Shown here piece after piece: positions 4,094 to 61,385 of a stretch of 64,000 nucleotides of DNA. Below the pieces are notes generated by a model, which was given only the letters and a program-made list of their open reading frames with translations, was not told where the DNA came from and ran no database searches. The DNA lies in contig DATINP010000033.1 in the NCBI GenBank assembly GCA_035474135.1, positions 2,334-66,333 of the forward strand. The letters are read 5' to 3'. This stretch comes from Chloroflexia bacterium. GTDB taxonomy: Bacteria; Chloroflexota; Chloroflexia; QHBQ01; JADMIH01. Position 1 is the stretch's first letter. Every line of letters starts with the position of its first letter. A program made the translations under genes and the position numbers.

Positions 4094-6502
4094 GTGAACA
4101 CAGAACCAAAACAATTCAGCATCAATCTTGCTGGCCGCGAATTGACCATAGAGGTCGGTCGCGTGGCCGAGCAGGCTTCGGGTGCTTGTACTGTGCGCTA
4201 CGGCGATACAGTAATCCTCGCGGCTGTAGTCGCTGCCAAGGAGCCACGCGAAGGCGCAGACTTCCTGCCCCTTACTGTTGATTACGAAGAGAAGATGTAC
4301 GCCGCAGGCAAAATCCCCGGCGGCTTCATCAAGCGCGAAGGCCGGCCCACAGAAAATGCCACACTGACATCGCGCCTCACCGACCGCCCTATCCGCCCCC
4401 TTCTGCCCAAGCAGTGGCGCGCGGAGATCCAGGTGACAATCACTACACTGTCCACCGACCAGGTAACTGAGCCTGAAATCCTCTCTATCATCGGCACCTC
4501 CGCCGCCATGCTCCTCTCTGACCTTCCCTTCGCGGGTCCGGTCGGCGCGGCCAAAGTCGGCTACATCAACGGTGAGTTCGTGCTCAATCCCACCGCCCAG
4601 CAGTTCCAGGAATCGGAGTTAGAACTGAGCCTCGCGGGAACCGAGGATGCCGTGTCAATGGTCGAAGCCAGCGCACACGAGCTTCCCGAAGATATCATGC
4701 TGGAAGCCGTCAAATTCGGTTTCGAGCAAGGGGTCAAGCCAGTCGCCGCTCTGCAAAGACAGATCGTCGAGGCTTATCAGCCCAAGAAGCGCGACTGGCA
4801 GCCTCCCGTCGCCGACACCTCCTTTACCGATGAGGTAACGGCATGGATCGGCACTCGTATGGCCGACGAAACTCACGACTCGGACAAAACGGTACGGGAA
4901 GACCGCACCAACGCCCTCCGCGCCGAAACGATTGCTCACTTCACTGAGTCTGCTGATCTTTCGGATGAGGACAAGGCGAAAATCACCGCCAATGTGAACA
5001 AGGCCTTCGACGTCCTTCTGAAAGAGGAAGTTCGCAACGCGATCCTCGTGCGCGGCGAGCGCCCCGATGGACGCGGTCCCAAGGACATCCGCCCTATCAG
5101 TATCGAAGTGGGCGTCCTCCCACGCACCCACGGCTCGGCCCTGTTTACACGCGGCCAGACCCAGGTGCTCTCGGTCGCCACTCTCGGTACAGGCGCTGAC
5201 GAGCAAATGCTCGATGGCCTCGGCATCGAGGACACCAAGCGCTACATTCATCACTACAACTTCCCGTCCTACTCGACCGGCGAAACCCGCCGAGGCCGAG
5301 GGCCATCACGCCGCGATATCGGCCACGGTGCGCTGGCCGAGCGTGCTCTTGAGCCTGTTCTGCCTTCCCAGGCTGATTTCCCCTACGTGATACGCGTTGT
5401 AAGCGAAGTGCTATCCTCCAACGGCTCCTCGTCTATGGCCTCTGTGTGCGGCAGCACCCTTTCGCTCATGGACGCAGGTGTCCCGATCAAGGCCCCGGTC
5501 GCAGGCATCGCGATGGGCCTCGTCGAGAGCAAGGATGGCACCCAGCACAAGGTCCTCACCGACATCCAGGGCATCGAAGACGCACTGGGCGACATGGACT
5601 TCAAAGTCGCGGGCACATCCGAGGGCGTTACCGGCCTCCAACTTGACCTCAAGACACAGGGGCTGGCATTCGCTATCATGGAAGAAGCCTTCGCACAGGC
5701 TCGTGAAGCTCGCCTCTTTATCCTCGACAAGATGCAGGAAGTGCTGGCCGAGCCTCGCCACCAGCTTTCCGCTTATGCACCGCGCATTCTCCGTATCAAG
5801 ATCAACCCCGAGAAGATCGGCGCGCTGATTGGTCCCGGCGGTAAGAACATAAGAGGCATCACCGAAAAGACAGGTACCAAGATCGACGTTGAGGAAGATG
5901 GCACAGTGCTGGTGGCCTCGACCGACGGCGAGAGTGCCAAGCAGGCAATCCGCATGATCGAGGGCCTCACTAAAGAAGCCGAGGTGGGCGAAATCTACCT
6001 GGGCAAGGTGGTTCGCATACTTCCCTACGGCGCATTCGTCGAAATCCTGCCCGGCAAAGACGGCCTCGTGCACATCTCCGAACTTGCAGATTACCGCGTC
6101 GAAAACGTGGAAGACGTGGTAAGCCTGGGTGACGAGATCAACGTGATGGTAATCGACGTTGACCGCCAGGGCAAAGTTAGCCTGTCGCGCAAGGCCGTAC
6201 TCACCGGCGAAATGCCCCCGCCCCGCGCCGAGCGCGAGCGCAGTGGCTTCGGCGGTGGCGGTCGAGATCGAGGTCCCCGCGAAGGCGGTGGCGGTGGCGG
6301 ATATAACCGCGGCGGCCCCGGTGGCGGCGGCGGCGGTGGCGGCTACAACCGTGGTGGTCCAGGCGGTGGCGGTGGCGGTGGATATAACCGCGGCGGCCCC
6401 GGTGGCGCTCCCGGCGGTGGTGGCTACAATCGCGGCGGTGGCGACCGGCCCCCCCGCGAAGGCGGCGACCAGGGTTCACAAGAGGGCGGCAACCGCTGGT
6501 AA
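4094..6502 (+). CDS. pnp: polyribonucleotide nucleotidyltransferase (PNPase) with Gly-rich GGYNRGG-repeat C-terminal tail
   Basis: GTG start with RBS; two RNase PH-like domains, KH (KIGALIGPGGKNIRGI) and S1 (GKVVRILPYGAFVEI) domains, then an ~95-aa low-complexity tail. Confidence 0.95.
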   Translation: MNTEPKQFSINLAGRELTIEVGRVAEQASGACTVRYGDTVILAAVVAAKEPREGADFLPLTVDYEEKMYAAGKIPGGFIKREGRPTENATLTSRLTDRPIRPLLPKQWRAEIQVTITTLSTDQVTEPEILSIIGTSAAMLLSDLPFAGPVGAAKVGYINGEFVLNPTAQQFQESELELSLAGTEDAVSMVEASAHELPEDIMLEAVKFGFEQGVKPVAALQRQIVEAYQPKKRDWQPPVADTSFTDEVTAWIGTRMADETHDSDKTVREDRTNALRAETIAHFTESADLSDEDKAKITANVNKAFDVLLKEEVRNAILVRGERPDGRGPKDIRPISIEVGVLPRTHGSALFTRGQTQVLSVATLGTGADEQMLDGLGIEDTKRYIHHYNFPSYSTGETRRGRGPSRRDIGHGALAERALEPVLPSQADFPYVIRVVSEVLSSNGSSSMASVCGSTLSLMDAGVPIKAPVAGIAMGLVESKDGTQHKVLTDIQGIEDALGDMDFKVAGTSEGVTGLQLDLKTQGLAFAIMEEAFAQAREARLFILDKMQEVLAEPRHQLSAYAPRILRIKINPEKIGALIGPGGKNIRGITEKTGTKIDVEEDGTVLVASTDGESAKQAIRMIEGLTKEAEVGEIYLGKVVRILPYGAFVEILPGKDGLVHISELADYRVENVEDVVSLGDEINVMVIDVDRQGKVSLSRKAVLTGEMPPPRAERERSGFGGGGRDRGPREGGGGGGYNRGGPGGGGGGGGYNRGGPGGGGGGGYNRGGPGGAPGGGGYNRGGGDRPPREGGDQGSQEGGNRW

Positions 6503-16500: not shown

Positions 16501-16788
16501 ATAATGGGTCTGCTCGTGCTTGTATGGCTCCTGTGGCGCTACTATCGGGAGGCCATAAACCTTGCGAGGTGGTGCGCGTCCAAGGCAGCCTCGGATGCGC
16601 TCCTGCGTGCGGTAGTAATTGGCCTGATCGCCGCCATGACCGACTTCCTGGTACACGGCCTGGTCGACAACTCGTACTTCCTGATGGACCTCGCACTGAT
16701 CTTCTGGCTGAGTTGCGGCGCTATACAGTTAGGTCGTATGCTTTATGTGGACGGGGGACGGCAGACGGCAGACGGCGGTAGGAATTGA
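13594..16788 (+). CDS. fusion protein: N-terminal clan GH-A hydrolase-like domain (paralog of the previous gene) plus C-terminal multi-TM O-antigen polymerase/ligase (Wzy_C-like) domain
   Basis: YQIWNEPN and WISEYAW catalytic-type motifs, then 10+ TM helices with LTYSRGAWVGAAVAIVL and RIDIWVSALKMGRDHPFFGIGQDQF (O-antigen-ligase family signatures); 1064 aa in one frame. Confidence 0.65.
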   Translation: MRLARPLVNDISANPIARAVLACLLLATCVGSLVGVSYVDNYVNAGVAWGGPPPDIPLADVDPMGVNLFLEKEPDPANVVKSLDMAQAGGFKWIRQDFAWNDIEISAKGNFTDTRNPGNPVSSWAKYDFIVDQAVAHGITIMARLDSPPVWARKPGDDLETYHKGPPANNNDYGDFVAAVAARYKGKIKYYQIWNEPNLLGEWGGHPVNAEQYVALLKVAHDHIKAVDPDAVIVSAALAPTTEESAANRSDILFLEDMYREGAKPYFDIMSTMIYGLGQPPSDRRTDFKRLSFSRPVLLHEVMERNGDALKPIWISEYAWLSYPDDLQQRLNLSPDEWAAFQAKNIWGKSVDEQTQGQYLVEGYERARDEWPWMGVMFVWHLRNPDGDPLEPATYFSILNQDFTPRPAYLALQEYSKVVPSTPTPQSKPLLNALGFPFLYALFGLLALASFAFLGLSVGEWARAALNRPRGRYSERTRETARNGAAIVGMGACYALFYVVGNLPVIVVALAGYLVIAFFKPQAALAFVAFSIPFFWYPKVYGSQHFPVAETLVVMAFAALIARRTVAALLPRLWARLGQPGMSPITSQAVVVDLRATKPIPINEPISAPEQAPVAEAPEAVDLSPAEWPARPRELIAELAKPLPLNGEREESRAAARRRRSDDALPQANYLDPLLARFRAWNRQDAFAAPAVALLLIGALSMLTLANHDFAPDSARAYRWIVIEPVLLYFLLTDIIRTKRGLVRVLDFFVGAGVFVAFIGLWQFVGGSNTLAVEGVSRVMSVYEHPNNLALYLGRVAPFAACTALFLPWGWRKLLYALAALPLFATFLLTYSRGAWVGAAVAIVLAVSIGLRWPLSRESAKPTRAFRAWLTAVGVGAVAVAIAVVFLFPSLPDRFINPDSGVKRIDIWVSALKMGRDHPFFGIGQDQFLNQYQLKNLDGTYHYITKAQVAELYTSHPHNIVLDWWLSLGIMGLLVLVWLLWRYYREAINLARWCASKAASDALLRAVVIGLIAAMTDFLVHGLVDNSYFLMDLALIFWLSCGAIQLGRMLYVDGGRQTADGGRN

Positions 16789-16940
16789 AACGCAAAGACG
16801 CAAAGGATTTAAGAGAGATCACGAAGATCACGAAGGGTAAGAGATCACGAAGAGTTAAGAGGGATTAAGGGTTTGACGCATGACGTATGACGCATAACGC
16901 GTTACCACAGTCGTCGGTCGTCAGTCGTCAGTCGTCAATC
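16757..16940. repeat. intercistronic tandem-oligomer element A: (GACGGCA)x3, (GATCACGAA)x3, (TGACGCA/TGACGTA)x3 with a TAACGCGTTA palindrome, (CAGTCGT/CGGTCGT)x4
   Basis: read directly; lies between the polymerase-fusion gene stop (16788) and the UXS gene start (16960); the first block encodes the protein tail DGGRQTADGGRN. Confidence 0.85.
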
Positions 16941-16959
16941 CGAAAAGGGGGCAGTTACT

Positions 16960-21887: not shown

Positions 21888-22009
21888 GGACCAGTGACCG
21901 GTGACCAGTGACCAGTGGCAGGTGACCGGTGACCAGTGCGTCATGCGTCATGCGTCATACGTCATACGTCATGCGTGACTTACGATCTAAGATCTACGAT
22001 CTAAGACTC
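21888..22009. repeat. intercistronic tandem-oligomer element B: (GTGACCA/GTGACCG)x7, (CGTCATG/CGTCATA)x5, (GATCTAA/GATCTAC)x4
   Basis: read directly; lies between the hypothetical-gene stop (22021) and the flippase start (21871). Confidence 0.85.
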
Positions 22010-23854: not shown

Positions 23855-23923
23855 GAACGACGACGGACGGCGGACGGCGGACGACGTACCACTCAGTCGT
23901 CTGTCGTCTGTCGTCCGTCGTCC
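23855..23923. repeat. intercistronic tandem-oligomer element D: (GACGACG/GACGGCG)x4 then (CAGTCGT/CTGTCGT/CCGTCGT)x5, an imperfect hairpin
   Basis: read directly; lies between the UPF0104-gene stop (23931) and the GT4 start (23851). Confidence 0.8.
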
Positions 23924-23930
23924 TTTCTCA

Positions 23931-28552: not shown

Positions 28553-28588
28553 ATACCGGCTATTCGATTCCCAGCCGGCAACGAAAAG

Positions 28589-28621
28589 GATCGCCCGTCG
28601 GTTTTTGACCCTCGGGCGATC
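28589..28621. terminator. bidirectional stem-loop between convergent genes
   Basis: GATCGCCCG / CGGGCGATC 9-bp stem with a T5-containing loop. Confidence 0.5.
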
Positions 28622-28656
28622 CCTCTAAAATCCCTGGTGTGCCTTGCGGCCAGAAA

Positions 28657-34025: not shown

Positions 34026-36479
<2,454 letters not shown>

Positions 36480-36480
36480 C

Positions 36481-36554
36481 ATAGCGCAACTCGGCTAAGA
36501 AGTAAGGTGTAGTCAGTTGCGACTACACCTTACTTCTTAGCCGAGTTGCGCTAT
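36481..36554. repeat. perfect palindrome: two 34-bp arms separated by a 6-nt loop (AGTTGC), immediately after the clpB stop
   Basis: ATAGCGCAACTCGGCTAAGAAGTAAGGTGTAGTC ... GACTACACCTTACTTCTTAGCCGAGTTGCGCTAT; reverse-complement checked by hand. Confidence 0.9.
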
Positions 36555-36715
36555 AGGGGTTGACAAATAGGGCATAAGCTGGTAAATAATAACTTAAAAC
36601 AAGTCTGCCGAATCTAACGATGGCTTTCGGTTGTCGATCATTAGCTTCATGCATTCTCTATGAGCAGATTGTTTGGAACTTAGAGAGGATCAGTTTGCTG
36701 GGAAGGAGCTTCGTG

Positions 36716-38046
36716 ATGGGAAAACTAATGCAAACAGGCGGGCTGCTAGCCATGATGGTAATTATGCTCAGTATCAATATCTCCTCTGTGCGGGCTTCTC
36801 AAGCTATCAATAAGCACGAAGTGCCATTGTCACTATGTTCAGGCTTCAGTGATGTGCAGGATACCGACTTTTTCTGCCATTTTCTGACAGTTATGGTAAA
36901 CAATGGAGATATCACCGGTTATCCAGATGGAACGTTTCGCCCTATAACGGGGTCACTAGAGGTGAGTTCTCCAAAATACTGATTGAGGGATTCGATCTCT
37001 GTTGCAACACCAGTGGAGGGCCACATTTCGCTGATGTTCCAGTGGGATCCACTTTCTATAATTGGATAGAGACAGCCTACAACAGGGGAGTCATCACCGG
37101 TTACAGTGACATGGGACATTGTGGTACACAGATACCATGTTTTTTGCCAGGTGCCAACCTTACACGCCAGCAAATGGCTAAGATGATCGCTATAACTGCT
37201 GGCTTTGGTGAATCCACAACGGGTAGGCCAGCCAGTTACTATGATATGACTAGCGGAAACACCTTCTTTTCTTATGTTGAGAACCTGGTAATGCACGCTG
37301 TGGCAAATCCGTTTGCTGCTTCCAATCCTCCCTACTGCCCATCATCCACCCAACCCTGTTTCTATCCTGGTGAAAATGCAACTCGCGCCGATATAGTAGC
37401 AAATGTTATGAACGCTCACCTGTCTAACGGCTACGGTCAGGTATTCGCAGCGAAAAGTGGAACATACACTGGTGTATCGGTTTATATTACAACTCCTGAT
37501 AATCCGGTCTCTGGTGTGCAGTTTATTGATGCACCTGTTGGTATGACCACCAAGACTAACGGGAAATTTATAGAATCAGGTCCAACAAAGGACTGCATTC
37601 CAAACTGCGGGAGTGGTTACTTATACCTGCATCCTTATGGGAGTTGGGGCAATTGGTATAGCGGTGGTCAGGATATCCTTAGAACTGTCTATCTCGCTTC
37701 AGGGGGTAGGTACGGATACAAGACAATCTATTTTGGCGGATCGGGTGGGCAGTGGCAGTCACAATATTGTGATGCGACTGGCTGCCGGGGAATTGTTTCA
37801 TCAGGCGACCTTGGAACAACCCTTCCGTATGTAGCAACAGGCGTCGAAGCCAACGCTAGAAACGTAAGCGTTGGACCGGTAACCTCATCCTATGCACAGT
37901 ACTTTTTGAACGGATCATGGTTCTACTGGTGCTATGACCCAACATTGCCACCCTGGAAGACAGCGTACCCTCCTAGCGGAATCAAGGGTAGTATTGGTTC
38001 ATGTAGCACTTATGACTATAGTTGGACAATTACCAACACTCCTTAG
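36716..38046 (+). pseudogene. secreted SLH-domain (three SLH-like repeats) protein, reading frame broken by a +1 shift at a G4 run (36949-36952)
   Basis: signal peptide MGKLMQTGGLLAMMVIMLSINISSVRASQA; SLH repeat 1 ...GDITGYPDGTFRP in frame 2 ends at 36982, and its expected continuation VTRGEFSKIL is read in frame 1 and merges into ORF 37042-38046 (SLH repeats 2-3 plus a Cys/Gly/Tyr-rich C-terminal domain). Confidence 0.55.
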
Positions 38047-38055
38047 GAGAAAACC

Positions 38056-38787
38056 ATGAGAACACACGGGAATTCCCATCAGTGGCGTAAATGGACCGCA
38101 ATTTTGATTGTTGGTGGCCTAACAATTAGCATGGCTCTCATCTATCTGTCCCTTACCTCGACTAAAGGCGGCAATCTTTCCGCTATTATGCCTGACACAC
38201 AAGGAGCCAATTTCCATTATGGTACCGAGAGTCTAGTTGGAGCTTCTCCAGATGAGGTAGGGCAGTATGCTTTAGAGTATGTACAACACCACCTTGAAGT
38301 AAGCGGTGAGCCTCAGGTTGTGCTTGCACGGTTTATCACGCAAGCAGAACGACCTTCGCTTGGGCTCGGCTGCCCACAAGCGAAGTTGACAATAGAAGAT
38401 CCACCAGAGATTCTAGTCATTCTTAGTGGCGACTTCGATGTAAGCAAAGCGATCAGCGGGTTGGCAACCAAACCACCTTGGCACTTCAAGTACGTAGCGT
38501 ACATCTTTGATCTGTGGTCTGCAAGTCATACAACATTTATTTACTCCCGGAATGGCGCCCAATTCAGGACTGCTCTAAACGATCCGACTATCCCATCAGA
38601 TGGCCCTAATGCAGAAGCTTCTCCTATCTGCCCCACGCCACTGCCAGATCAGGTTCTACTGCATTATGGGGATATTGCTCCCACAATTCAGATTCCTGAA
38701 GGACCGGCTGTGGGAAGTCCGACACCAGTATCTCCAATACCATCAGAGATCGTTCCCCCTCCATTACCTACATACGGATCAAAATAA
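38056..38787 (+). CDS. hypothetical membrane-anchored protein (islet gene)
   Basis: 243 aa; N-terminal TM (WTAILIVGGLTISMALIYLSL), Pro-rich C-terminus; lower GC than surroundings. Confidence 0.4.
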   Translation: MRTHGNSHQWRKWTAILIVGGLTISMALIYLSLTSTKGGNLSAIMPDTQGANFHYGTESLVGASPDEVGQYALEYVQHHLEVSGEPQVVLARFITQAERPSLGLGCPQAKLTIEDPPEILVILSGDFDVSKAISGLATKPPWHFKYVAYIFDLWSASHTTFIYSRNGAQFRTALNDPTIPSDGPNAEASPICPTPLPDQVLLHYGDIAPTIQIPEGPAVGSPTPVSPIPSEIVPPPLPTYGSK

Positions 38788-44509: not shown

Positions 44510-44579
44510 CGTACAGGTACCTGGGACAAAGGGGGATTGCAACACCGCAATCCCCCTTTGCTTATTGTAAAATAGGCCT

Positions 44580-49171: not shown

Positions 49172-49192
49172 TAGTGGGTCCACCTGGCGATT

Positions 49193-49253
49193 AGACGACA
49201 GACGACGGTTAGTGGGTACTGTCGTCCGTCGTCGGTCGTCCGTCGTCCGTCGC
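49193..49253. repeat. intercistronic tandem-oligomer element E: AGACGACAGACGACGG, 12-nt loop, then (GTCGTCC/GTCGTCG/GTCGGTC) repeats
   Basis: read directly; lies between the nrnA stop and the truB start; encodes the nrnA tail DDGRPTTDD. Confidence 0.8.
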
Positions 49254-50352: not shown

Positions 50353-50727
50353 TTACGTGGTAGGCTCCGGCTTTTCCGACGTTGTTTCAGCATCGTGCAA
50401 CTCGGTGAGCAGGCGATTGATGCGATCGCTATATTCCAGGCTCCTATCGAGCTTGAACTGCACCTCTGGCACACTGCGTGTGGTCAGGCGGGTGGCTACT
50501 TCGTGGCGCACGAATCCACGCGCACTTTCCAGCGCGACCATGCTTGCCTTCTGGTCTTCGGGCGTTCCCATCACGCTTACAAAGACGCGCGCGTACTTGA
50601 GGTCTCGACTGACCTCCACCCGCGTCACCGTCACAAACCCCAGCCGTGGGTCCTTCAACTCGCGCTGGATCAGATACGAGACGATGTGTTGTATTTCTTC
50701 CGCAACTTGTATATGCCTTGTGTTCAT
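50353..50727 (-). CDS. rbfA: ribosome-binding factor A
   Basis: RIAEEIQHIVSYLIQRELKDPRLGFVTVTRVEVSRDLKYARVFVSV matches RbfA along its length. Confidence 0.9.
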   Translation of the reverse strand: MNTRHIQVAEEIQHIVSYLIQRELKDPRLGFVTVTRVEVSRDLKYARVFVSVMGTPEDQKASMVALESARGFVRHEVATRLTTRSVPEVQFKLDRSLEYSDRINRLLTELHDAETTSEKPEPTT

Positions 50728-50732
50728 GCTTC

Positions 50733-50850
50733 TCTCAATTCTCAATTCTCAATTTTGAATTCTTAATTAAGCCGTGCCATCCGGTTTGCGTAACCTGGTC
50801 GGACTGCCACATCTTCATTAATTAAGAATTCAAAATTGAGAATTGAGAAT
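50733..50850. repeat. AT-rich pair of 33-bp inverted repeats flanking a 47-bp GC-rich core (MITE-like or large RNA hairpin) in the infB-rbfA spacer
   Basis: ATTCTCAATTCTCAATTTTGAATTCTTAATTAA ... TTAATTAAGAATTCAAAATTGAGAATTGAGAAT; the left arm contains (AATTCTC)x3. Confidence 0.85.
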
Positions 50851-53004
50851 TTATTTTACGGCTATTTGCTCTTTCCTGTAGAACTCCAGGGTATCGCCTT
50901 CCTCGAAGTCGTTGAAGTTGGTCAGCGAGATGCCGCACTCGTAGCCCTGAGCCACGTCGCGTACATCGTCCTTGAACCTCTTGAGGGCCGAGACCGTGCC
51001 ATCATAGATGACAGCGCCGTTCCTCAGTAAGCGTACCTGTGCGTTGCGCGTGGCCTTGCCTTCAGTTACGATCAAGCCAGCGGCCTGCTCGTTCTTCGGG
51101 AGGCGGAAGACCGCACGCACTTCGGCGTAGCCGTCGGTTACGTCGTGGAATGTCGGCTCAAGCAGACCCTTCATTGCCAGCTCGATGTCCTCCGACAACT
51201 TATAGATGATATCGTAGAACCTGATTTCGATGCGGTTCTTGTCGGCTGCCCGCTTCGCGGCGGCATCAGGCCGTACGTTGAACCCAACGATAATCGCGCT
51301 TGAAGCGACGGCCAGCGCCACGTCCGACTCGGTGATCCCGCCCGTTCCACGGTGCAGGATTGACACCTTCACGTCCTCGTTGGTCAGCTTCTGTAAGGTC
51401 TGCGTAATCGCTTCCAGCGAACCTTGCACGTCGGCTTTGAGGATAAGGCGTAATTCTTTTACCTTGCCGGCCTGTATCTGGGCGAACAGGTCGTCCAGGT
51501 TCACGGACTTGATGCTCTGGGCTGCTTCCTCGAACCGGCGAATACGCGCCCTCTGATCAGCGATCTCTTTCGCTGTAGTTTCGTCGGGCGCTACTACTAG
51601 CGTATCACCCGCCTGGGGCACACCCGATAGGCCAAGTATTTCTGCCGGGGTCGATGGTTCTGCTTTACGCAGCTTGCGACCCTTGTCGTCTTGCATAGCC
51701 CTTACACGGCCCCAGGTCGCCCCTGCCACGACATAATCGCGCAGATTGAGCGTGCCGTTGCCGATAAGCACGGTAGCAATTGGACCACGGTTTCTGTCCA
51801 TCTCGGCTTCGACTATAGTGCCTGTGGCGCGCCTCTGTGGGCTGGACTGCAGGTCGCCCAGTTCTGCCACCAGCAGGATCGTCTCCAACAGGTCCTGTAT
51901 GCCGGTGCCTGCGCGGGCCGATACCTTGATATACTCGGTATCGCCTCCCCACTGGGTCGGCACAAGGCCCTGATCCGAAAGCTGGGTCATTACACGGTCA
52001 GGGTTGGCTTCCTCGCGATCCATCTTGTTGATAGCAACCACGATAGGCACGTTGGCAGCCTGTGCATGGGCCAATGCCTCCAGTGTCTGGGGCATAACTC
52101 CGTCGTCTGCCGCCACCACCAGCACAACGATGTCCGTGATCTGGGCGCCGCGGGCGCGCATGGCTGTAAAGGCTTCGTGGCCCGGTGTGTCCAGGAACGT
52201 GATCTTCTTGCCCTGCAACTCGACCTGGTATGCACCGATGTGCTGGGTGATGCCACCTGCCTCGGTGGCGATCACGTTAGCTGAGCGGATGGTATCGAGC
52301 AGTTTGGTCTTGCCGTGGTCTACATGGCCCATGATAGTAACCACGGGCGGACGCAATGATTGCCTGCTTGTATCTGCCGCTTCCTGTTCGGCGGTCAGCA
52401 ATTCTCCCAGGTCTTCTTCTACTTCCAGTTTGGCTTCGGTTACTTCGTAACCCATGCCGATAGCAGCTATTGCAGCCGTTTCATAGTCAATTTGCTGGTT
52501 GATCGTGGCGAGTACCCCGTGCTTGATCATTTCGGCGATCACTTTTGTGGGGTTCACGTTCATCAGTTCGCCAAGCTCTTTGACGGTTAAATAGGGCGGA
52601 ATAGCTACTTTGGGCGTAGGGCGTTCCACACCCAGGCCAAGCCCGCGTGCGGCCCCGAAGCCACGAGTAGAGGCTGCCGCGCCGCCACCGCCACCTCGGA
52701 AGCCGCCTCTGCCGCCCCCGAAGCGATTGCTGCCGCCGTTTTGCCCACCGAATCCGGGTCGAGCCCCACCGCCGCCTGGGCCGGTCCTGTTAAAGCCGCC
52801 TGGGCGGGCTGCACCGCCCCTCGCCGGGGGTCGTCCCCCGCTAGGGCGTCCGGGTGCTCCCGGGCCACCGCCCGGCCTGCCACGTCCCGGTGTGCGCGGT
52901 GTGCGCCCAGGACCACTCGCTTCTTCTTCCGGCGTATCATCGCCTGCACCTGCATCACGTCCGCTAGTGGGCGCAACAACTACGTAATCTATTTTCTTTG
53001 GCAT
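50851..53004 (-). CDS. infB: translation initiation factor IF-2 with Gly/Arg/Pro-rich N-terminal region
   Basis: G-domain motifs [19 protein letters not shown](R/K); C-terminal beta-barrel domains; 717 aa. Confidence 0.95.
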
Positions 53005-53128: not shown

Positions 53129-53428
53129 TCACTCGTCCGCAATCCCCTCTCCATATGCTTGCAATGCGGCTTTATCTTCTGCCGTAATTGCCGTTTTTAG
53201 TGCGTATTCCAGCACTTTACCTTTTAATGCTTTATCCCAACATTCTCTTGACTTATGCAGGTAGGCTCCCCTGCCTGCCTTCTTGCCTGTTTCATCCACT
53301 TCAACTGTACCGGTTGCGGTTCGTACCACCCGCACCAGACCCCGTTTAGCCTCAGTGCTGCGGCAGGCCACGCAGGTGCGCTGCGGCACGTGTTTGGGTC
53401 GTGGTTGCTTTGCTGTTTTTGCGCTCAT
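53129..53428 (-). CDS. ylxR: YlxR-family (DUF448) RNA-binding protein of the nusA-infB operon
   Basis: RTCVACRSTEAKRGLVRVV...GRGAYLH signature; position between nusA and infB. Confidence 0.8.
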   Translation of the reverse strand: MSAKTAKQPRPKHVPQRTCVACRSTEAKRGLVRVVRTATGTVEVDETGKKAGRGAYLHKSRECWDKALKGKVLEYALKTAITAEDKAALQAYGEGIADE

Positions 53429-53456: not shown

Positions 53457-54674
53457 CTAGGCTTCCGCTTCGACCTCTGCGGCTACATGTTCGACCTGCA
53501 ACTCCTGGTCGTCTTCAACAGGTTCGCCTGTTACGTAGCCGTTCTCATCTATGGCGTGACCATTATTAGCCGCTTCGGCCCTCAGCATATCGACCGCGCG
53601 GCGCGCCAGTTCTTCGTCGTCCATCTCTTCCGAATCTTCGTCCGAAAGGGCGCTCTTGATGTCAATTCTCCAACCTGTTAGCTTGGCAGCGAGACGAGCG
53701 TTCTGCCCTTCTTTGCCTATCGCTAGTGACAGCATTCTTTCTGGGACGAGCACAGACGCTGTCTTGTGTTCCTCGTTGAGTTCGACCGACAGCACCTGAG
53801 CCGGCGATAGGGCGTTCGCGATGTACACGGACATATCCGGGTCCCAGAGCACCACGTCTATTTTCTCGCCGCCCAGTTCGTCCACAATCTTCTGGATGCG
53901 CTGGCCTTTCATGCCCACGCACGACCCTACAGGGTCAACGTTGGCCTGGCGTGCGGCCACCGCTACTTTCGAGCGCATACCCGACTCGCGGGCGATGCTC
54001 TTGATCTCGACAGCGCCACTGTGTATCTCCGGCACTTCAAGTTCGAACAAACGCCGCAAGAAAGCGCGGTCGGCGCGCGATACGATTAGCTGCGGTCCCT
54101 TCTGGTTCTTCTGCAACACTTCCAGCAAAAGCACTCGCATACGAGTGCCTGATCGGTATCGCTCGCTCTTTACCTGGTCCTTGGGCTGGAGAATAGCTTC
54201 TGCCCTCCCCACTTCCAAAATCCAGTTGCCGTTCTGGTCCTGGCGTTGCAGGTTTGCAAGCACAATATCGCCTTCGCGGTCACTGAACTCGCCTACCACG
54301 CGGTCGCGCTCGGCCTCGCGTATCCTCTGCATAACCACCTGCTTGGCGGTCTGCGCGGCAATTCTGCCAAAGTCGGCAGGCGTGGTCTCTTTTTCAAGCA
54401 TGTCGCCGACCTGGGCTTCCGGGTTGGTAGAACGTGCCTCGTCAAGCGACACCTCTGTGGATGGATCTTCTACTTCGAGGGCCACGGTGCGCCGCTCAAA
54501 CACGCGAGCATCTCCTGATTGCAGGTCCAATTTCACGGCCACGTTCTGGTCGGTACCGGCGATACGCCTGTATGCGGTTATTATTGCGTCCTCGATACCC
54601 CGCAAAATAGCTTCGCGGGAAATATTGCGTTCTGATGCTATCTGGTTTATAGCGGCATAAAGATCACTCTTCAT
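53457..54674 (-). CDS. nusA: transcription termination/antitermination factor NusA
   Basis: N-terminal RNAP-binding domain, S1 and two KH domains (GxxG boxes); 405 aa. Confidence 0.95.
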
Positions 54675-61257: not shown

Positions 61258-61385
61258 TCAGGGCTTGATAGCGCCGTCGCTGGGCCTCCAGTCGGCACAC
61301 GAAAAGGTACCCGCTTAAAAGAAGAGCAGCAGTGGTTGCATACCACTGCTGCTCTTCTTTCTGGTTATTGGATCGTCAGGTTACA

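Follow-up and report, generated by a model that had tools for sequence, protein, structure and literature searches.

What is the long, perfect, AT-rich inverted repeat between infB and rbfA in a Chloroflexia bacterium: a small transposon that landed in the spacer, or a structure that belongs to the operon itself? The element lies in a 64-kb stretch of contig DATINP010000033.1 (hereafter the window), within an operon that runs nusA, ylxR, infB, rbfA, nrnA-like and truB, with ribF next in order, all on the minus strand, as placed by Pfam matches and the list of open reading frames (ORFs). The lineage is uncultured, and the closest named relatives of its RbfA are Chloroflexota metagenome-assembled genomes (MAGs). 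A sequence-only reading had proposed a transposable element of the miniature inverted-repeat kind (MITE), and had added that the arms would form a long RNA stem open to RNase III. Comparison of related loci shows that the junction retains a stem as far out as about 60% RbfA identity, with rapid change in the sequence and length of that stem. We consider it very likely that the element is a conserved structural hairpin and not a mobile element. The fuller account of a position-specific intercistronic hairpin, with the mode of origin and action developed below, stands in our estimation about evenly between right and wrong. In window coordinates the junction and its genes are laid out as follows.

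50851-53004, minus strand: infB, encoding IF2 of 717 amino acids (Pfam IF-2, GTP_EFTU, EF-G_D2 and IF2_N)
50853-50851, minus strand: infB stop codon TAA, its final A being the first base of the hairpin
50818-50851, minus strand: 5' arm of the hairpin in transcript orientation, the heptad array AATTCTC AATTCTC AATTTTG AATTCTT AATTAA
50771-50817, minus strand: apical core of the hairpin, 47 nt (fold; alignment and alifold of the long forms)
50737-50770, minus strand: 3' arm in transcript orientation, TTAATTAAGAATTCAAAATTGAGAATTGAGAATT (perfect inverted repeat; tandem repeat search)
50728-50736, minus strand: linker GAGAGAAGC, 9 nt from the stem base to the rbfA ATG (sequence)
50353-50727, minus strand: rbfA, 124 amino acids, ATG at 50727-50725 (Pfam RBFA, 2.2e-35; translation)
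downstream of rbfA, minus strand: nrnA-like gene with DHH/DHHA1 domains (Pfam)
53129-53428, minus strand: ylxR (Pfam, ORF list)
53457-54674, minus strand: nusA (Pfam, ORF list)

The two arms (50737-50770 and 50818-50851) are 100% reverse complementary with 47 nt between them, a match that shuffles of the window never produced. The inverted repeat that had been called from the letters is thus real, and its arms are perfect as described, at 34 nt rather than 33. Together with the core they fill a spacer of 123 nt (50728-50850), where 118 bp had been given. Read along the transcript, the stem opens at the infB stop, TAA-ATTCTCAATTCTCAATTTTGAATTCTTAATTAA, and the rbfA ATG follows 9 nt past its end. 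For the sense-strand RNA the folding energy is -54.7 kcal/mol (z = -8.7 relative to dinucleotide shuffles), with a predicted uninterrupted helix of 33-34 bp that the core is predicted to extend imperfectly up to a small stem-loop, GGUU-ACGCA-AACC. The heptad periodicity noted in one arm is present in both: Tandem Repeats Finder (TRF) reports TCTCAAT x5.1 at 50733-50768 and AATTGAG x4.6 at 50820-50851, the 3'-arm array running on to 50733 as an unpaired partial unit.

In composition the arms stand at 17.6% GC, the 82% AT agreeing with the roughly 80% first estimated; the core stands at 59.6%, the window at 57.6% and the locus at 58.0%. The core is simply at the genome average, so only the arms are unusual, and the descriptions of a GC-rich core and of a locus above 60% GC have to be withdrawn. 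The linker GAGAGAAGC carries the sole Shine-Dalgarno-like purines (GAGAG) of the spacer. The rbfA start at ATG 50727 agrees with the identical protein called from that ATG on metagenome contigs; a longer, TTG-started ORF reaching 50745 would enter the hairpin arm and is unlikely to be real. A small ORF in the core (ATGAAGATGTGG..., 27 codons) was also rejected, its ATG being missing from two relatives that have a homologous core (L005 and L133). Rfam gave no hit at its gathering thresholds in the whole window, and the plant microRNA precursor matches that appear at E values up to 10 score 17-40 bits against thresholds of 79-230, which is generic resemblance between long hairpins. The window search found no tRNA involved at the element.

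Is the hairpin a property of this one genome or of the junction? The comparison covers the spacers of L001, L002, L005-L009, L133-L138, L213-L218 and L222-L223 (labels of the related loci), relatives with RbfA identities of 57% or less and spacers of ~300 nt or more being left aside. All distinct relatives with RbfA identity of at least 60%, except L139 and L216, have an uninterrupted helix of 15-35 bp at the junction, starting 0-14 nt past the infB stop and ending 7-25 nt before the rbfA ATG. Of the two exceptions, L139 (RbfA 60%) has no stem in a spacer of 16 nt, and L216 (69%) has a weak stem only. The inverted repeat at the junction is the longest, and usually the sole long one, in these related loci, and no conserved hairpin was found at the ylxR-infB, rbfA-nrnA or nrnA-truB junctions of the relatives.

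The forms that the hairpin takes are diverse. An identical RbfA is encoded only on short soil-metagenome contigs, and no record of the exact InfB was found; in L001 and L002, where RbfA is likewise identical, the spacer is 63 nt and holds a 25-bp perfect hairpin, AATTCTTAGATCTCAGTGTTGAATC-CGAAA-..., which opens in the infB stop codon and closes 10 nt before the rbfA ATG. The long form, with AT-rich heptad arms and a homologous core, recurs in L005 and L133 (RbfA 95% and 93%), and short forms with other stem sequences are found in L006/L007 and L008/L009 (92%). Further away, at RbfA identities of 60-78%, L134/L223, L135, L136, L137, L138, L213/L214, L215, L217/L218 and L222 have uninterrupted helices of 15-31 bp at that position. 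The window, L005 and L133 span 29-32% divergence at third codon positions, yet hold the long form in common, and the homologous core across such a distance indicates that the long form is old and orthologous, not a recent insertion. Two apical pairs of the core have changed on both sides in an alifold of only three sequences. At the 3' base of the stem, AGAAT-TGAG is retained in most close relatives; L133 reads AGAATTAAG there, with TAAG for TGAG. An assembly artefact was considered and rejected: the long form (L005, L133) and the short forms are present in independent assemblies from different samples. The persistence of the stem, the turnover of its sequence and the hairpin-free neighbouring junctions together suggest a function that depends on the stem alone.

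The heptads themselves follow no such rule of conservation. At the junction the relatives hold the following units.

AATTCTN: window, L005, L133, L215
GCGGAAT x4: L137
GTAAAAC x3-4: L138
GACTACC x3: L213
CCTAATT: L217
GTTGTCA x2 paired with (ACTGACA/ACTAACA) x8: L222 (TGACAAC heptad)

Other relatives have junction stems without heptads. That the heptads differ or are absent among relatives implies that the stem is what is conserved and that heptads are a way in which the stem grows. The arrays of L222 (1068-1149, RbfA 76%) are very unequal, with two units on the 5' side and an array of eight that reaches the rbfA ATG.

How does the transposon reading fare against these observations? It holds that a MITE-like mobile element inserted in the spacer or, as a variant, that an older hairpin received a small element in its apex, where TTAATTAA bounds it. 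Terminal inverted repeats are present, with AT-rich arms in a locus of 58% GC; any palindromic hairpin has such repeats, so that they do not discriminate. The close relatives L001 and L002 are without the inner 60 nt, the extra inner segment is flanked on either side by TTAATTAA, two unrelated MAGs contain a 24-mer of the arm, and similar arms occur many times in Bacteroidales records. Against this, the arm and the core are each single copy in the window, where no other copy of the arm or the core was found with up to 3 mismatches and the heptad motif does not recur, and among 185,579 species representatives no related genome yielded a further copy of the arm 24-mer. No direct repeat that could be a target-site duplication was found in the flanks (...CTTCTCTC, arm ... 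arm, TATTTTAC), and the element has no known transposase partner. Clean empty sites were not seen among the relatives, which show homologous or analogous hairpins with graded mirrored changes instead, and the long form common to the window, L005 and L133 is old. The sequence-only reading had itself named a hairpin kept in relatives with compensatory changes as the outcome that would overturn its transposon, and this is what the spacers show. The MITE reading is largely refuted, and we regard it as highly improbable.

Known bacterial MITEs make the same point by comparison. Like Correia elements (CREE) of Neisseria, ERIC, RUP and BOX, the element is intergenic, of a size within ~100-150 bp, and has terminal inverted repeats; unlike them it is not dispersed as a unit in the window, has no target-site duplication and no empty sites, and has orthologues in relatives. 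Heptad arrays of simple sequence form its arms, unlike the transposase-binding ends of MITEs. Bacterial MITEs can be co-transcribed with their neighbours, and Correia elements can be cut by RNase III.

What, then, are the similar arms in other phyla? Exact matches to the arm 24-mer were found in an unclassified bacterium (L003, 4641-4752), between a gene of the HlyD family and a MacB-type permease gene, and in a Candidatus Sulfomarinibacteraceae MAG named as Acidobacteriota (L004, 815-906), after a histidine kinase gene. In both an identical 27-nt stretch, ATTCTCAATTCTCAATTTTGAATTCTT, starts at the upstream stop codon or no more than 2 nt away from it and is followed by an unrelated GC-rich core and then by an imperfect second AT-rich heptad array. 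Arrays of GAGAATT/GAAAATT are multi-copy in records of Parabacteroides distasonis and Bacteroides finegoldii (54 places in 23 records) and occur once in the cyanobacterium Kovacikia; the sites include L130 1500-1617, L131 1506-1577, L132 1498-1570, L219 414-478, L220 399-440 and L221 ~400-440. Some of these are inverted pairs around unrelated cores after stop codons, and others are single direct arrays (x6 in L220). Viral contigs gave no match to the exact arm 24-mer, and matches to a degenerate heptad pattern among them were saturated on AT-rich giant-virus contigs. The cores of the look-alikes (16-50 nt) are unrelated, and the look-alikes are therefore not one mobile family.

The mirrored changes in the stem are best appreciated over its basal 22 bp, in nine distinct relatives with RbfA 72-100% identical. 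Here 99% of the cells form standard pairs and 15 of the 22 pairs have changed on both sides, a degree of pairing and covariation that 500 column shuffles never reached; when the partner is slid by 1-3 columns, pairing falls to 32-49%. The basal 6 bp, (A/G)ATTCT / AGAATT, are invariant among the nine sequences. Counted on the sense strand, the set includes 11 G.U cells and 2 that are unpaired. In L002, L005, L006, L008, L009, L133 and L138 the sense fold is favoured over the antisense fold by 4-14 kcal/mol, and it is also the more stable one in L215, where three G.U pairs would be A.C on the other strand.

Such tidy covariation raises the question of how both arms come to change together. Between the window and L001, 10% of third codon positions differ, and their arms align heptad by heptad with 5 substitutions and 1 indel in 25 nt, each mirrored on the other arm; over the whole stems this amounts to 10-12 substitutions in 50 nt, all mirrored, plus a 60-nt indel at the apex. 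Change of this kind exceeds independent neutral change and is far too tidy for stepwise compensatory mutation. L006 and L007 are 98.6% identical (53 of 3698 nt differ), and six of their differences are one exact inversion of the apex at 2953-2972 of both, GCCGGATCCGAAGATTCGGC in one and GCCGAATCTTCGGATCCGGC in the other, comprising the loop and the adjacent wobble pair. Template switching is described as homogenising the arms of inverted repeats and inverting their spacers (PMC8604942), and template switching in replication as creating and maintaining RNA hairpins (PMC8794818). Both signatures, homogenised arms and an inverted spacer, are found here among close relatives, and the pattern of the flipped apex and the mirrored arms points to DNA-level copying between the arms. 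As in the cases of PMC8794818 and PMC8604942, mirrored multi-nucleotide changes keep the stems perfect and a loop is inverted between near-identical sequences; unlike those cases, which concern rRNA, other RNAs and eukaryotic genomes, the setting is a bacterial operon spacer.

This dynamic behaviour cuts both ways, and several observations weigh against a stem selected as RNA at this particular junction. Frequent template switching would mirror changes even in a palindrome that has no RNA role, so that covariation alone is no proof of selection on RNA. Three of the 11 G.U cells trace to one shared TAG stop codon, the antisense fold is the better one in L007, L134, L136, L137, L213 and L222, and another heptad-armed hairpin of the window, at 23856-23925, is clearly better on the antisense strand. 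In view of the shared stop codon, the distant relatives that favour the antisense fold and this second hairpin, the G.U bias argues only weakly for a sense-strand RNA. Moreover, L005 has a second, unpaired array of the AAGAATT type at 5090-5125, 2.1 kb downstream of rbfA and directly after the stop codon of a convergent gene, which means that AATTCTN arrays are not unique to the infB-rbfA junction in that genome.

What could the hairpin do, and how could it be formed? We hypothesize that the arms grow by slippage of 7-nt units, a simple-sequence repeat common in the spacers of this genome, and that their perfect complementarity is maintained by replication template switching, which would copy one arm onto the other and occasionally flip the apex. 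In the polycistronic mRNA the resulting perfect duplex of 17-35 bp would be a substrate of RNase III and be cleaved or, failing cleavage, would block 3' exonucleases. In either case the fates of the infB and rbfA parts of the mRNA would be separated, which would set their ratio, and the hairpin would fill the role played at this junction in Escherichia coli by the partial terminator t3. RNase III takes double-stranded RNA that runs uninterrupted for some two turns, or at least 20 bp; a perfect duplex of 17-35 bp is its textbook substrate, and one of 25-34 bp or more a canonical one. The predicted helix, at 33-34 bp here and mostly 17-35 bp in relatives, has that length. The long RNA stem and candidate RNase III site in the nusA-infB-rbfA transcript, the other half of what had been read from the letters, fit all the findings, and we infer this mechanism in preference to the others: judging from the folds and comparisons, the stem probably acts on the mRNA, with RNase III processing or mRNA stability as the most likely route.

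Termination is the most obvious competitor. The hairpin might be a partial terminator or attenuator that stops a fraction of RNA polymerases after infB and so lowers transcription of rbfA and the genes downstream, and its position speaks for this: in E. coli this junction has terminator t3, and the level of rbfA mRNA is about half that of infB mRNA (PMC6511841). In the window, too, every helix of at least 14 bp sits in a spacer at a gene 3' end, and none in a divergent spacer. The stem is not followed by a U tract, however, here or in any relative compared; a terminator scan made no call at the junction hairpin, whose tail reads UGAGAGAAGC, and the genome uses ordinary U-tailed terminators elsewhere, three of them in the window with stems of 12-19 bp (28553-28656, 44510-44579 and 61318-61360). 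Junction stems of 17-35 bp and of any base composition are unlike intrinsic terminators. The junction hairpin is not a canonical terminator, and an attenuating role is unlikely. In a promoter scan the sole promoter-like match lay in the end of infB, at chance level. If the ribosome rather than the polymerase were the reader, the stem would couple translation: it places the infB stop beside the site where ribosomes bind for rbfA, with the 34 nt directly upstream of that site buried in it, and rbfA would be translated mainly when a ribosome terminating on infB had melted the stem base. The stem does open in or right after the stop and close 7-25 nt before the ATG in nearly all relatives, and the invariant basal 6 bp, followed by a mostly kept TGAG while the rest of the stem turns over, would suit such gating, which has also been proposed for cyanobacterial heptamer hairpins between hupS and hupL (PMC2670836). 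The Shine-Dalgarno-like purines lie outside the stem, though, so that occlusion is at most partial, and in the more distant relatives the stem starts up to 14 nt past the stop; we find coupling quite unlikely.

The observed dynamics leave a further reading in which the palindrome has no function at all, being the product of slippage and arm-to-arm template switching in any spacer that tolerates it. Heptad arrays are indeed abundant in the window, direct and inverted, with a content that differs by spacer; the apex inversion shows DNA-level processes at work; some hairpins are better on the antisense strand; and a heptad hairpin at the nrnA-truB junction of the window is not conserved in relatives. 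The infB-rbfA hairpin, on the other hand, is found in almost all relatives with RbfA 60-100% identical despite complete turnover of its sequence, the neighbouring junctions of the same operon are without a conserved hairpin, and persistence of this kind would be difficult to account for if selection did not favour a stem there. We consider a functionless palindrome improbable, and continue with the mRNA-acting stem as the preferred reading.

How does an mRNA-acting stem compare with described systems? RNase III processes hairpins in the metY-nusA-infB leader, between rpsO and pnp and at the early intercistronic sites of phage T7, and in E. coli the extended nusA-infB-rbfA-rpsO-pnp cluster is processed by this enzyme. 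The stem shares with these sites its length (at least ~20 bp) in an operon transcript, its intercistronic position and its membership of the same extended ribosome-biogenesis cluster. The E. coli sites usually have internal loops and a conserved sequence, unlike the perfect, fast-evolving stems here, for which cleavage is a prediction. RNase III processing of the operon leader is documented in E. coli (PMC6511841). With t3 the hairpin has in common the junction, the conserved operon and, as proposed, a partial passage of infB-level message into rbfA; unlike that transcription terminator it lacks a U tail, has two to three times the length and shows no relationship to t3 in sequence.

Of the systems so far described, the hairpins of short tandemly repeated repetitive (STRR) sequences in cyanobacteria come nearest. 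The consensus heptamers of STRR, CCCCAGT, TTGGTCA and CAACAGT, were reportedly given by Mazel et al. in 1990. STRR heptamers form hairpins between hupS and hupL in Nostoc and Anabaena, with a function that is unproven and for which transcript stability, termination or translational coupling has been proposed (PMC2670836). Tandem 7-nt units in spacers, inverted arrays as a hairpin within an operon and several heptads dispersed over the genome are common to both systems, and the window has several intergenic 7-nt tandem arrays as well as inverted arrays between co-directional genes. The lineage is not that of the heterocystous cyanobacteria, the relatives being Chloroflexota MAGs, and the heptads, AATTCTN and others, differ from the STRR1-3 consensus. 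Since phylum and heptads differ, the element works like an STRR hairpin and is not a member of the named STRR families. What it adds is that conservation at an orthologous junction applies to the hairpin and not to the heptad, and that the hairpin, with perfectly complementary arms, can be traced across a lineage.

Heptamers have also been noted beside start codons. TAACTGA direct repeats occupy such positions in Beggiatoaceae, Cyanobacteria and Bacteroidetes (MacGregor 2015, PMC4679880), and heptamers are, as cited there from Mrazek 2007, the most abundant class of long simple-sequence repeats in bacteria. The present arrays resemble them in standing beside start or stop codons in operons and in the same heptad appearing in distant phyla with no visible vehicle, and the CAACTGA unit of L222 is one base off TAACTGA of Beggiatoaceae. 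They differ in that the TAACTGA repeats are mostly direct and upstream of start codons, while these are inverted arrays paired into a long stem.

Within the window TRF reports 11 period-7 arrays, nine of them besides the two arms, in agreement with an independent scan, and among periods not divisible by three, seven dominates. All lie in spacers or at gene ends, and all five array-holding spacers are between co-directional genes. The hairpin at 23856-23925, with arms of GACGGCG x3.6 and GTCGTCT x3.9, fills a spacer of 79 nt that separates two minus-strand genes, one LPG-synthase-like and one for a GT4 glycosyltransferase; its plus (antisense) strand folds at -59 to -61 kcal/mol against -41 to -44 for the other, since its wobble pairs turn into A.C on the sense strand. 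The nrnA-truB junction (49190-49253) has a 13-bp hairpin with arms of GACGACN and GTCGTCC x4.6, in which the nrnA reading frame passes one array and stops in the loop. Two other co-directional spacers are packed with arrays, of GACGGCA, TGACGCA and CAGTCGT at 16749-16941 and of GACCAGT x7, TGCGTCA x5.7 and GATCTAA at 21889-22006. Some units recur in inverted orientation kilobases apart: TGACGCA at 16874 has its complement at 21937, and GTCGTCN is found at 16908, 23896 and 49221. These recurring heptads are an STRR-like dispersed repeat system.

Could the heptads of so many lineages be read by something? Their sharing across phyla may reflect either a favoured slippage product or a reader. In the second case, heptad-armed perfect hairpins might be a general, self-renewing punctuation of operons with a shared trans-acting factor as its reader; candidates would be RNase III or a protein that binds 7-nt units, and cold-shock proteins bind units of that length. 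We regard this as a long shot. If true, it would explain why the stem is retained despite its rewriting, why different heptads arise repeatedly at the junction, and why AATTCTC, AATTTTG and AATTCTT follow stop codons in the source lineage, L004 and L003, with related GAGAATT/GAAAATT arrays in Bacteroidales and a cyanobacterium; the arrays would then be kept by a dedicated slippage and template-switch process and not by ordinary point mutation and selection.

Other repeats of the window and of L005 are of different kinds. A second perfect inverted repeat, of 34 bp with a 6-nt loop and without heptad periodicity or U tail, lies at 36481-36554 and begins 2 nt past the stop of a ClpC/ClpB-like AAA+ gene (34026-36479). 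Beyond it the genes at 36620-38787 have an unusually low GC content at third codon positions, 0.40-0.47, from which the region may be an acquired island. GGC-rich tandem repeats of 42/81 nt at 6283-6438 occupy the 3' end of an 802-aa ORF (4094-6502) and give it a Gly-rich, repetitive C-terminus. The 5' part of infB (52600-52950) has 70-83% GC and 21-nt tandem repeats (GCCGCCACCGCCACCCCCGAA), which probably encode the low-complexity N-terminal linker of IF2; in the relatives L005 and L006 some gene callers split infB into two ORFs at this region. In L005, about three tandem copies of a ~33-nt unit with a small hairpin, GCGGACT-ACGTTTACAA-AGTCCGC, follow the nrnA-like gene (4465-4560), and are a repeat resembling the repetitive extragenic palindromic (REP) type, unrelated to the heptad arrays.

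The infB-rbfA junction of this Chloroflexota lineage loses a transposon, the call being removed as false, and gains a clean natural case of a long mRNA hairpin that retains its structure at one operon junction even as a genomic divergence of a few percent suffices to rewrite its sequence. Slippage of heptads, copying from arm to arm and flipping of the apex have left visible traces of that turnover. The unexplained phenomenon of STRR and other heptamer repeats is thereby extended to another phylum and tied to a specific place in a universal ribosome-biogenesis operon. If the stem is indeed an RNase III or stability site, it would be this lineage's solution to setting the ratio of IF2 to RbfA, the task that falls to t3 in E. 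coli.

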